Part shown: positions 30,015 to 33,257 of the stretch, piece by piece | Numbering within the stretch: position 1 is the first letter of the stretch | How the letters are laid out: each line of letters begins with the position of its first letter | NCBI GenBank assembly: GCA_963801355.1 | Contig: CAWDEM010000004.1 | Span: forward strand, 424,811-488,810 | DNA: 64,000 bases | Source: Ignavibacteriota bacterium | GTDB taxonomy: Bacteria; Bacteroidota; Ignavibacteria; UBA10030; UBA6906 | Direction of reading: 5' to 3' | Program-made: the position numbers and the translations under genes | The notes under the pieces: generated by a model | The model's input: the letters and a program-made list of their open reading frames with translations, nothing else | Databases searched by the model: none | Told to the model about the DNA's origin: nothing

Positions 30015-31439
30015 CTACATGAAGAATCGGAATTGGTAGGGCGTGGCACCCAAGCCTGGCATCCGCTTGACTACACGCGCAAGCACCTCCGCATAGCTCA
30101 TGGTCACGGGCAATGGATCGTAGAGCGCGTCGTTATTCCAGTTCATTTTCGAAAGTGCAAGCACCGCACGAGCCGTGTCATCCCAGGTTCCATGGCCGGC
30201 GTAGCGCACGAGGCGGAGCGGGCGAGGAGTGCTCCGCGCGCCCTGGAAATACGATCCACGCCGGCTGATGTCTCGTACGTCGCCATGGGTCCACAGGAGC
30301 GCCTCCCGCGGACCGATAGTAATCACTGTGCCGCGTGAAACTGGGAAGGGGGTCGGTTCTTCTTTCCTTCCTTCTGCACGATCATTGTCGATGCGCACGC
30401 CGCGCCAACCCACATTCTGCACCACCTGAAGGAGATCGGCCGCCTCACACAGATGGAGGGCCTCCATGGCGCCGTCAACCTCATCCCGCTTGAACTCAGT
30501 GGTCTTGTGGACCATCACGCGGCGGGGAGAGCGCCCAGCGTGTCGGTGACGGTAAAGGTCCAGTGAGCGGGTCATGACCCGAAACATCTCATTTCGTGAG
30601 AGAAACGGGTTGTCTCGCTGGACCTCGACCTCGTGGGCATCGTAGGCCACAAATTCCATTCCCGAACCCTCGGCGTCAAACACCTGACTGCAGCAGGTCA
30701 CAAACCGCGGCCGGTCCGATTCAGGGGGGCGAATAGCGTACGATATGCCGATGTAGGCTGTCTCCGGATCCATCTCCGCAAGCTTCCAAGGCACTCCACC
30801 AGCCTTCGCGTAAAGTGCAAGCCCAATGCGCCACATGACGCTGGCTCGGTCCGGGTACGCGAGAGCCCTGTCCTCCCGGACCAGCTGAATGGGCAGTCCC
30901 CGAGGAGCCGTAGCAGCTTTCAAGTGGTCATGGAGATCGAAGTCCTCAGCTGCGCCGCCGACAAAACCGAGGGCCCAACGTTGTGGGAGGTAGATACACA
31001 AGATGTCAAATTCGGTACGGTGAGCCTCAAGACTTTGAATCGCCCGTACCAATGCGTCGGCAAGTAAGACGTGAGGTGTCTTGGAAGTGCGGAACTCGGC
31101 TTCGAATTGCGGCCTGAGTTCGACGTGACAGTGACCACCAGCACTCCGCGTGTGCAGCCCGAAGACGGTCGGAAAACCGGGCCACTGGGGGAGGTAGTCC
31201 TTGCGCTCAGTCGGAGCGTACGTGGCATTGAGTTCTTTCATGAAGCCGTACAGGCGGGGGCTCTCGCCTGCTGGGGCCAAGGTCGCAACGCGAATAGGGT
31301 CAGGCACCAGGCCAGCCGAATAAGGGCCGAACCGGAGCAACCCACGCAACGGGTGAACCTCACGATCGCTGGTGCGGTCCGGGTGGAAGGCAAGCTTGGG
31401 TTCAGGCAGCCACACGTGTGGGAGAATCTCGCTACTCAT
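30015..31439 (-). CDS. Short prokaryotic Argonaute (MID-PIWI, likely catalytically inactive)
   Basis: The size (~474 aa) and a PIWI-like conserved strand LALYAKAGGVPWKL are consistent with a short pAgo. The ATG overlaps the TGA of the upstream SIR2-APAZ gene (ATGA at 31436-31439). The ORF is open to 31463. Confidence 0.65.
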   Translation of the reverse strand: MSSEILPHVWLPEPKLAFHPDRTSDREVHPLRGLLRFGPYSAGLVPDPIRVATLAPAGESPRLYGFMKELNATYAPTERKDYLPQWPGFPTVFGLHTRSAGGHCHVELRPQFEAEFRTSKTPHVLLADALVRAIQSLEAHRTEFDILCIYLPQRWALGFVGGAAEDFDLHDHLKAATAPRGLPIQLVREDRALAYPDRASVMWRIGLALYAKAGGVPWKLAEMDPETAYIGISYAIRPPESDRPRFVTCCSQVFDAEGSGMEFVAYDAHEVEVQRDNPFLSRNEMFRVMTRSLDLYRHRHAGRSPRRVMVHKTTEFKRDEVDGAMEALHLCEAADLLQVVQNVGWRGVRIDNDRAEGRKEEPTPFPVSRGTVITIGPREALLWTHGDVRDISRRGSYFQGARSTPRPLRLVRYAGHGTWDDTARAVLALSKMNWNNDALYDPLPVTMSYAEVLARVVKRMPGLGATPYQFRFFM

Positions 31440-33257
31440 ACCCGAACTCTCTTTGAGAAACATGTGTCCGAGGAGAGTCGAAAAGCGGCATCGACGCCGT
31501 CTCCAATACCCAGAGCGCGAAATTCGCTACCGTCACCGGCGAGCAAGTCCGCCCAAAAAGTGATCAACTCATTCAGCTGCCGGTTATAGCGTTTGACCGT
31601 GCGTCCTCGAGCGAGGTCAGCAGCAGCTGCCTTGTTGCCATCAGTGATGCCGTCGAAGACAGTGCGTGGCTCGACCAGCAGCCATAGGCGGTCATCGGCC
31701 CAATCCAGACAGATCCCGAGGCCCTCGCGCCATTGCAGCTCGGGATGATCTTTCACCGTCCCGCTAACCACCCCTACCAAGCGCTGTAGCGGCGCCCAGG
31801 CTGCGTCCTTCGGGTCAGTCGGCGCAAGCAGATCGGTCCTGTGCCGACGGATGGCGTCGAAGCCAAACCGACGCATGAGCGCATGGGTCAGCGCTTCGCG
31901 GAGCAGTCCACGCTCACCGGATTCGTAACGTAAGCGATTGGTTTCTATGGTATGGAGGTCGAAGCCAGTTATGTCATATCGGCCAAACGCGCTTCGCACG
32001 TCTGCATCTGAGCCGAAGGCCAGGACGCATGCGTGCGTGCGGGCAACGAGAACGTTCACGCGAGCACGTTCTACCGCCTCCCGCACCTCAGCGAGTCCAC
32101 CTACCTGACAGACCACGCGCCGACACACACTCGGCATCTGAACAACAGGCAGGGCGTTGAGGCGCACCACCGGCCAGCCACGCCCGCCGTCCGAACGCGG
32201 TGCTGCGCTCCAGCGCCGACGCTCCGTAGCGAACGTATCGAGCACCTTAGTATCAATACCCTTTCGCAGGCGCACCAAATCGCGCAGCGCCTCGTCGAAG
32301 TTCTCAACCCCTACCAACGCCGCATCCACTCCCGCCCTGACTGCACGCGTCAGTAGTTGACCAACGCGAGGCAGCAGTGGGTCGTCGCCGCGGTGTAACC
32401 AAAAAAGTCCAGCCGGGTAAGCGCTGTTGTGCTCCAACGCCTCTTCGAGCGCGTTCATGATAGAGTCATCGCGGCCGCTGTAACCGATCACCACAAGCCC
32501 AAATCTACGGCACGACTCGACCAACACCTGCCTCAGGCGAACGTCCTGGTGTCTCAACTCATCACCCGTATTCTTCAACCGCCGCGAGTGAAAGTCACCA
32601 TGTAGCTTTACTTCGATTGGCCAACGTCCCTCGTTGATGAGCTGTAACGCCTGGTCCGGCGCGTCAAGGGCTACGGTCGTCAGGGTCCCCGTGGTTTGAT
32701 ACACTTTGGCGCAAGCATCTGCTACGAGAGAGTCAAAATTCGTCGTCCACACCAGACGCGTGAGTTGCGCGCGCATCAGCGTGGCAAGTGCCAAGTGCCC
32801 GTAGGAAGGCTTCGCCCCGGTCATCTTCGCATCTAAGTAGGCTCGCCGATCTGCTTCGGCCGGATATACCGCCTCGAACAGGGTAGCGTACTCGTCCGGA
32901 GAGCCCGGCGGCGGCAGATTCTCCGAGGAGTCAATGTGGGCCTGCAACTGCGCTCGAACCGCCGGATTAGAAAGATCAGGACACGGTTTGGAGCGAGGCT
33001 CGGCGCTGACTGACGAAAAGCTGCTGTTTGAACTCCCACACCATATCCGAGGCGGTGGGAACACCTGCGGAGGCTGAAGCACCGGCGCCGAGTAGCCACA
33101 TCAGGTTTCCGGCGCGCAGTGAAAAGCGCCGTGCGAAGTCATCGGCGCCGATCTGGTTTGGTGTTGCCTCAGTGTTCATAAGACGGCCACCAACAACACG
33201 AACTGGATTTCCACACGAGTTCGTGGCTAATTGGAAGATCCTAATCTTCGCCGACAT
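31436..33257 (-). CDS. SIR2-APAZ protein (short-pAgo partner, SPARSA-type NADase effector), apparent frameshift near 5' end
   Basis: The main ORF 31436..33082 carries the SIR2 core (SYGHLALATLM...VWTTNFD...VIGYSGRD) and a ~250-aa C-terminal APAZ-like region. The NAD-binding N-terminal motif LMWLLGAGASASAGVPTASDMVWEF is encoded in a different frame (32976..33257). Confidence 0.7.

Follow-up and report, generated by a model that had tools for sequence, protein, structure and literature searches.

Results

Two overlapping genes encode a SIR2-APAZ protein and a short Argonaute

The window, by which we mean the whole 64,000-nucleotide stretch analysed (Ignavibacteriota bacterium, assembly GCA_963801355.1, contig CAWDEM010000004.1, positions 424,811 to 488,810), carries on its minus strand, at 30015-33179, two genes that most probably form a SPARSA defence system. 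They are separate, adjacent and unfused, the upstream one encoding a SIR2-APAZ protein and the downstream one a short prokaryotic Argonaute (pAgo). In the assembly, the SIR2-APAZ reading frame is interrupted, while that of pAgo is unbroken. The elements of the locus are given below in window positions. SIR2-APAZ residues are numbered throughout on the repaired protein of 580 amino acids (aa).

32979..33179, minus strand: SIR2-APAZ codons 1-67, in the other frame, with the glycine-rich NAD+-binding loop GAGASASAGVP (residues 31-41); from PADLOC model PDLC02419 and the starts of homologs
32978, minus strand: extra base (+1 frameshift) directly 5' of the GATC at 32974-32977, creating an in-frame TGA at 32976-32978; from DNA alignment of homologs, frameshift-aware alignment and a split PADLOC match
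31436..32977, minus strand: SIR2-APAZ codons 68-580 and stop, comprising most of the SIR2 domain (N147, H193, G232-D237) and the whole of APAZ; from PF13289, PDLC02401 and 8IN8_B
31436..31439, minus strand: ATGA, overlap of the SIR2-APAZ stop and the pAgo start; read directly from the sequence
30015..31439, minus strand: short pAgo (MID-PIWI), 474 aa, intact; from PADLOC pAgo_I, 8IN8_C and conserved columns
29890..29920, minus strand: perfect 13-bp hairpin without a T-run, between the pAgo stop and hsdM; from folding compared with shuffled sequences

The pAgo open reading frame (ORF) begins with an ATG, which overlaps the TGA of SIR2-APAZ as a preliminary description of this DNA had stated. 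Of 109 related loci, 97 have an ATGA or GTGA where pAgo starts, and a four-nucleotide overlap so widely conserved fits coupled translation of the two subunits. About 95 nt past the pAgo stop, the hairpin (ΔG -27.7 kcal/mol, z -5.7, equalled by none of 200 shuffles) is probably the end of the operon. A scan for sigma-70 promoters and terminators upstream of SIR2-APAZ gave nothing useful, the consensus perhaps not suiting this phylum, and an Rfam scan returned tRNA only. The G+C content of the operon is approximately 0.60, versus 0.53 in its neighbours.

Both proteins match the chains of a solved SPARSA complex

The 474-aa protein, earlier noted for a PIWI-like strand, matches the PADLOC model pAgo_I from end to end (residues 2-474 on profile positions 2-457 of 457, E 7e-198). 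It also aligns over residues 3-474 with 8IN8_C, the pAgo of the Geobacter sulfurreducens SPARSA system (GsAgo; E 8e-111). Its match to the Pfam Piwi family is sub-threshold (21.9 bits versus a cut-off of 28.9). GsAgo, of 473 aa, consists of MID (1-218) and PIWI (219-473) domains (PMC10781750), and the alignment to it indicates a protein made of MID and PIWI only.

The SIR2 partner is recognised by Pfam SIR2_2 (PF13289, E 4.9e-13), by the PADLOC model PDLC02401 (E 4e-180) and by the PADLOC model Aga_SIR2-PNTD1-PNTD2, of which it covers profile positions 21-523 of 524. It aligns with 8IN8_B, the GsSir2 chain, over GsSir2 residues 60-568 (E 2e-58). The APAZ domain of GsSir2 spans residues 331-587 (PMC10781750), and the alignment runs through residues 331-568, which bears out the APAZ-like C-terminus proposed earlier for the SIR2 protein. 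The PIWI/MID fold at 30015-31439 and this C-terminus, on which the preliminary description had staked its case, were thus both found by profile hidden Markov model and structure-chain matches. At the level of sequence, such matches to solved SPARSA chains settle the question of fold.

The system most similar to ours is GsSir2/Ago (PDB 8IN8, 8JKZ, 8JL0, 8K87, 8K88), which has the same two-gene architecture with proteins of about 585 and 473 aa, versus 580 and 474 aa here. The order and sizes that had suggested a short-pAgo/SIR2-APAZ system are confirmed by this comparison, as the 8IN8 chains match both genes. Differences also exist, since the two pAgo proteins are only about 41% identical, and the SIR2-APAZ frame is broken in the present assembly.

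Clade S1B, or SPARSA-B, is defined by an operon in which SIR2-APAZ and the short pAgo are encoded separately (Koopal et al. 2022, PMC9097488). We consider, with a probability of about 0.9, that the locus is a clade S1B system, a translationally coupled SIR2-APAZ and short pAgo pair carried as cargo of an island; the clade is assigned from architecture and the best PADLOC models, not from phylogenetic placement. XavSIR2-APAZ/pAgo of the same clade (PMC9097488) likewise has an unfused SIR2-APAZ gene followed by a short pAgo gene, the likeness being one of architecture and PADLOC models only. In clade S1A the two are fused, whereas here they are separate genes. SPARTA (TIR-APAZ and short pAgo, clade S2A) would be analogous in principle, a guide-loaded short pAgo that senses invader DNA switching on an APAZ-linked NADase. 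However, its effector is TIR instead of SIR2, and its pAgo chains, although the next matches in the PDB, are much more distant (E about 1e-20 to 1e-23).

It is hardly credible that the locus belongs to some other kind of SIR2-based defence (Thoeris ThsA, DSR, SIR2-HerA), or that it is a long pAgo system merely resembling SPARSA: weaker PADLOC matches to other SIR2-containing models do occur (PDC-S65, for instance, E 5e-19), but the pAgo-associated SIR2-APAZ models match at full length and more than 100 orders of magnitude more strongly, the partner is a 474-aa MID-PIWI protein without an N or PAZ region, and the best solved relatives of the two genes are two chains of one SPARSA complex.

Residues of the NAD+ site and of the guide pocket are conserved

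With GsSir2/Ago, the two proteins share the Asn/His dyad, the GYSGRD loop, an HK-type MID motif, the N435/C-terminal Met ligands and the sensor-loop Asn. In SIR2-APAZ, N147 and H193 align with the catalytic dyad N142/H186 of GsSir2, and F148, D149, Y233, S234, R236 and D237 with its NAD+-contacting residues F143, D144, Y226, S227, R229 and D230, whose roles are described in PMC10781750; the GYSGRD loop (Y233-S-G-R-D237) lies on GsSir2 Y226-D230. In pAgo, H170, K174 and Q185 of the MID motif align with GsAgo H166, K170 and Q181, and N435 and the C-terminal M474, of the 5'-phosphate/Mg site, with N434 and M473. Also conserved are D168 and F159, which serve to recognise a 5'-A, and the Asn of the sensor loop. 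These roles are described for GsAgo in PMC11452484, and those of the MID motif and the carboxylate/Mg site also in the preprint of Zaremba et al. (10.1101/2021.12.14.472599). The HK-type motif and the C-terminal carboxylate/Mg site of a MID pocket predicted to accommodate a 5'-phosphorylated guide are thus present in the alignment to GsAgo.

Conservation was also measured against the wider family. At columns at least 98% conserved, pAgo deviates at 0 of 143 (109 homologs), and the repaired SIR2-APAZ at 1 of 153, the background mean being approximately 0.9-1. Short pAgo proteins of clade S1B are characterised by a PIWI domain without the catalytic DEDX tetrad. By eye, YIGISYA and VMVHKTT occupy what we take to be the places of the GxDV and RDG motifs of active Argonautes.

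By homology to GsSir2/Ago (Zaremba et al., 10.1101/2021.12.14.472599; PMC10781750; PMC11452484), an intact copy of the system could be expected to act as follows. SIR2-APAZ and pAgo would form a heterodimer, in which the MID pocket of pAgo would load a short guide RNA by its 5'-phosphate. Pairing of the guide with single-stranded DNA of an invader would displace the PIWI sensor loop and cause tetramerisation, which in turn would align the His/Asn site of SIR2 for hydrolysis of NAD+. Cells that are infected or bear a plasmid would then be depleted of NAD+ and die or halt growth, so that infection or plasmid establishment would be aborted. Two points weigh against carrying this scheme over unchanged. 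The activity is predicted from GsAgo, to which our pAgo is about 41% identical, and GsAgo residues R190, Y240, H310 and K396, contacts of U2 and of the 2'-OH groups of the guide, are replaced here by Y, F, E and Q. Because these contacts are lost, guide preference may differ from that of GsAgo.

A single surplus base splits the SIR2-APAZ gene

The preliminary description placed three motifs, GAGASASAGVP, TTNFD and VIGYSGRD, in one 548-aa protein, and took SIR2-APAZ for a single continuous frame. The last two motifs are indeed in the 548-aa ORF (31436-33082, minus strand, GTG start). GAGASASAGVP is not: it lies in a separate ORF of 93 aa (32976-33257, minus strand), in a different frame, and the interruption between the two had been missed. 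Of the span of 30015-33257 given for the operon, the left end, 33257, is the ATG of the 93-aa ORF, but homology starts near 33179. The PADLOC profile PDLC02419 is itself split, with positions 1-48 in the 93-aa ORF (E 2.2e-17) and positions 48-557 in the 548-aa ORF. Since a single profile continues across the two ORFs, we regard them as one gene split by a frameshift.

The position of the shift was mapped in two ways. DNA alignment with 10 homologs, all of which lack the base, placed exactly one surplus nucleotide between codon 66 (GTG) and the GAT of codon 68. Frameshift-aware protein-to-DNA alignment against homologs P0002 and P0004 found a single shift at 32978 and no further shift or stop. 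The split falls after codon 67, and removal of one base yields a 580-aa protein from the ATG at 33179, which is 79-81% identical to full-length homologs over 579 residues. Most of the 120 homologs among the matches listed (more than 2000 were detected) are also 580 aa long, and start at the equivalent Met. The break is found in the deposited genome too, where SIR2-APAZ is called as a 503-aa protein (P0001, 100% identical) with a TTG start downstream of the shift, and pAgo as one of 474 aa.

The first strand of the Rossmann fold and the glycine-rich loop for NAD+ are both encoded by codons 1-67. In GsSir2, residues G25/A26, R30, L34 and S38 contact the pyrophosphate and adenosine of NAD+ (PMC10781750). 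A product restarted past the shift would lack these N-terminal contacts, and NADase activity should for that reason be absent from the system as assembled. As the frame is interrupted, NAD+ depletion is not to be assumed for the assembled locus.

SIR2-APAZ is more often disrupted than pAgo among related loci

A total of 137 related loci (L001-L137) were compared, 80 of them genome loci chosen by their pAgo and 57 metagenome loci chosen by their SIR2-APAZ. In almost all loci that reach far enough, SIR2-APAZ is immediately upstream of pAgo, and this holds in many phyla. These environmental homologs (proteins P0002-P0120) have the same length, order and ATGA overlap as our locus, and come from metagenome-assembled genomes (MAGs) of Verrucomicrobiota, Acidobacteriota, Desulfobacterota-type bacteria, Nitrospirota, Planctomycetota and others. 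Their SIR2-APAZ proteins are 70-81% identical to ours and their pAgo proteins up to 84%, 81% and 84% being the maxima among those retrieved, and the flanking genes differ. The closest relatives (78-84% amino-acid identity) are themselves scattered over many phyla, which is consistent with horizontal transfer. Megablast of 29800-33400 against plasmid and E. coli collections gave no match.

Among the 80 pAgo-selected loci, SIR2-APAZ is disrupted in 11 (8 by frameshift or stop, 2 by a large insertion, 1 by truncation), whereas pAgo gives a single intact match in all 80, this set being biased to intact pAgo. The 57 SIR2-selected loci, counted where they cover both genes, include 3 with a broken SIR2-APAZ and 1 with a broken pAgo. 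Over all fetched loci, this amounts to 14 disruptions of SIR2-APAZ versus 1 of pAgo, the larger set being the pAgo-biased one. The loci concerned are as follows.

SIR2-APAZ with frameshift or stop: L002, L004, L013, L018, L035, L037, L054, L066
SIR2-APAZ with large insertion: L033, L057
SIR2-APAZ truncated: L055
Further loci with disrupted SIR2-APAZ: L110, L121, L123 (for comparison, L087)

The counts, which do not reach significance, are suggestive of a preferential loss of the toxic SIR2-APAZ effector. Several genomes with a disrupted SIR2-APAZ are long-read MAGs. Six further contigs (L129-L131, L134, L135, L137) have only an N-terminal SIR2 fragment, covering about residues 8-135 or less and not followed by pAgo, and are apparently what remains of SPARSA loci that were lost.

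Origin of the surplus base

The question arises whether the extra base exists in the bacterium. Directly downstream of the operon lies a type I restriction-modification (RM) cluster, which agrees with the adjoining RM system of the preliminary description, and whose genes are damaged as well.

24632..29813, minus strand: type I RM cluster, Pfam matches fragmented over several frames
28365-29813, minus strand: hsdM, five frameshifts
~27127-28359, minus strand: hsdS, interrupted by frameshifts
24632-27113, minus strand: hsdR, 1-2 frameshifts, one of them firm, at 26390

The genes of this cluster are full length in nucleotides and their damage consists of small indels, technical-looking rather than evolutionary. 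The shifts of hsdM map to 29647, 29238, 29132, 28954 and 28677. Once repaired, HsdM is a 481-aa protein without a stop. It shows 82-91% identity with 14 homologs, which measure 460-495 aa, and deviates at 0 of the 202 columns invariant among them, the homologs' own median being about 4. Five independent indels without substitutional decay look like consensus error or an indel-only process, and unlike the neutral decay of a pseudogene. Old neutral decay of hsdM was rejected on this basis.

We lean towards regarding the base at 32978 as a consensus or assembly error, local to the island, rather than as a genuine recent inactivation, because the repaired SIR2-APAZ has no sign of decay and hsdM has accumulated frameshifts without substitutions. 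The nature of the events is rather uniform. Five of the six events in SIR2-APAZ and hsdM, and the firm one in hsdR, are insertions of one nucleotide, the sixth (hsdM, 29647) being either +2 or -1. Three of the six directly abut a GATC (32978, TCC[T]GATC; 29132, AAG[A]GATC; 28954, GATC[C]), and the hsdR event at 26390 is some 5 nt from one. Thus 4 of 7 mapped sites are beside a GATC or within about 5 nt of it, as compared to 4.6% of island positions. Possible causes of error include strain-mixed coverage of a mobile element, cross-mapped reads of widely shared genes, and miscalls at methylated motifs in a long-read MAG. An unbroken copy of the same allele was not found, the best metagenome and genome relatives being only 81-84% identical.

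Several observations weigh against an error. Five core genes (serS, two ABC transporters, ettA and truA; 7.3 kb with 59 GATC) have no frameshift, and neither do pAgo and the integrase of the island, so that errors, if any, are not uniform; uniform sequencing error was rejected for this reason. In hsdR, hsdM and SIR2-APAZ, 3-4 of 36 GATC sites have a shift next to them, as against none of 68 in the intact genes (Fisher p 0.013-0.04, in a post hoc test). The extra base is outside any homopolymer, the public gene call P0001 is likewise truncated, and disrupted SIR2-APAZ genes are known in other assemblies, short-read ones included. The surplus bases linked to GATC may reflect either methylation-linked basecalling error or a real hotspot that selection masks in core genes. 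For the frame changes of a broken BNR-repeat paralog elsewhere in the island, no clear adjacency to GATC was found.

It is possible, at clearly less than even odds, that the frameshift is real. The locus would then be an effector-dead SPARSA, in which the NADase gene was recently lost and pAgo is intact, a fresh pseudogene in an island whose defence cargo is decaying. Both the deposited sequence and the gene call made on it have the break, the extra base is not in a homopolymer, and frameshifts are restricted to island genes, the core genes checked being intact. In addition, SIR2-APAZ is broken in other loci, as seen above, and SIR2-APAZ alone lowers NAD in E. coli (PMC9097488), which provides a motive for selection against it. 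However, SIR2-APAZ bears no further sign of decay, and the five indels of hsdM without substitutional decay, in the same island, are not expected under neutral decay. Moreover, the 11 of 80 come from a set in which intact pAgo is favoured, and the difference of 3 versus 1 in the unbiased set falls short of significance.

A stronger version, in which a real shift belongs to a recurrent pattern, appears improbable. Either the toxic SIR2-APAZ would be preferentially knocked out and the pAgo sensor kept, or a GATC-linked process of +1 insertion would hit dispensable genes of the island.

Finally, a shift that is functional, whether by programmed +1 ribosomal frameshifting at UCC-UGA or by reassembly of SIR2 from two polypeptides, is very improbable indeed. 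The UGA does stand at the very point at which slipping by +1 would bring back the frame (...TVS|DLSNP...), but neither the 10 aligned homologs nor the 99 full-length ones have the extra base, and other SPARSA loci have their frameshifts at different positions. UCC-UGA would also be a poor slip site, as the Ser-tRNA on UCC should re-pair poorly on CCU, and no upstream stimulatory element was seen by inspection nearby. Programmed frameshifting was rejected on these grounds. As for two polypeptides, the first ATG of the downstream frame comes no earlier than the equivalent of residue 120, the public gene call resorting to TTG, and the missing part corresponds to the NAD+-contacting residues G25/A26, R30, L34 and S38 of GsSir2.

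The operon is cargo of a phage-related island

The operon is cargo on a phage-related island of approximately 34 kb integrated at tRNA-Pro. Its limits and other genes are the following.

17911-17986: tRNA-Pro
17943..17992, plus strand: attL, a perfect 50-bp direct repeat over the 3' end of tRNA-Pro
18049-19071, minus strand: tyrosine integrase gene, adjoining tRNA-Pro
19768-21782, minus strand: replication module beside the integrase, archaeo-eukaryotic primase and AAA_25/DnaB-like helicase
23122-23823, minus strand: DUF4145 protein, PADLOC PD-T7-4 single-gene defence candidate (E 1.3e-13)
33724-34164: CAAX-protease-like gene, upstream of SPARSA, overlapping an ORF at 34119-34580
36425-36985 and 37156-37671, minus strand: tandem genes of SnoaL-like polyketide-cyclase fold
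42890-45988, plus strand: phage-type replication/recombination module, Sak4-like annealase, DnaB-like helicase and Mu Gam-like protein
46288-48330, minus strand: BNR paralog with type IX secretion system (T9SS) sorting domain, split over at least 4 frame changes with no obvious GATC link
49043-51151, minus strand: intact BNR-repeat protein with T9SS sorting domain, 702 aa
51992..52041, plus strand: attR, identical 50-bp repeat closing the island

No virion genes were seen in the island, which looks like a satellite or a composite cryptic element. The DUF4145/PD-T7-4 match is a third defence-type gene on it, and the defence-island setting beside an RM system given in the preliminary description is confirmed. 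The T9SS sorting domains, and the relatives of SerS (those with names are Bacteroidota MAGs, at 74-77%), indicate an uncultured Bacteroidota-like host. The overlap between the CAAX-protease-like gene and the ORF at 34119-34580 may be another frameshift. A fixed module of SPARSA and type I RM was considered and rejected, an hsdM-like gene being near only 9 of the 137 related loci.

Discussion

For annotation, the locus calls for caution. One base suffices to split the gene and to make automated pipelines call a truncated "SIR2 family protein", and the system would be scored as present although it may be dead or mis-assembled. Likewise, indel-only damage to several genes of one island, partly beside GATC, is either a flag on assembly quality or a small mutational puzzle. 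If the toxic effector is in fact preferentially knocked out, what is left may be a reversible off-state, or an effector-less APAZ/pAgo remnant that binds guides.

The SPARSA family is already characterised in structure and mechanism and has thousands of environmental members, to which this locus adds no new concept. It is a new member without a name so far, its identity to the relatives retrieved being no higher than 81-84%, and it provides a clear case of SPARSA as cargo of a tRNA-integrated, phage-related island, alongside further defence genes, in a Bacteroidota-like lineage that has been poorly sampled.

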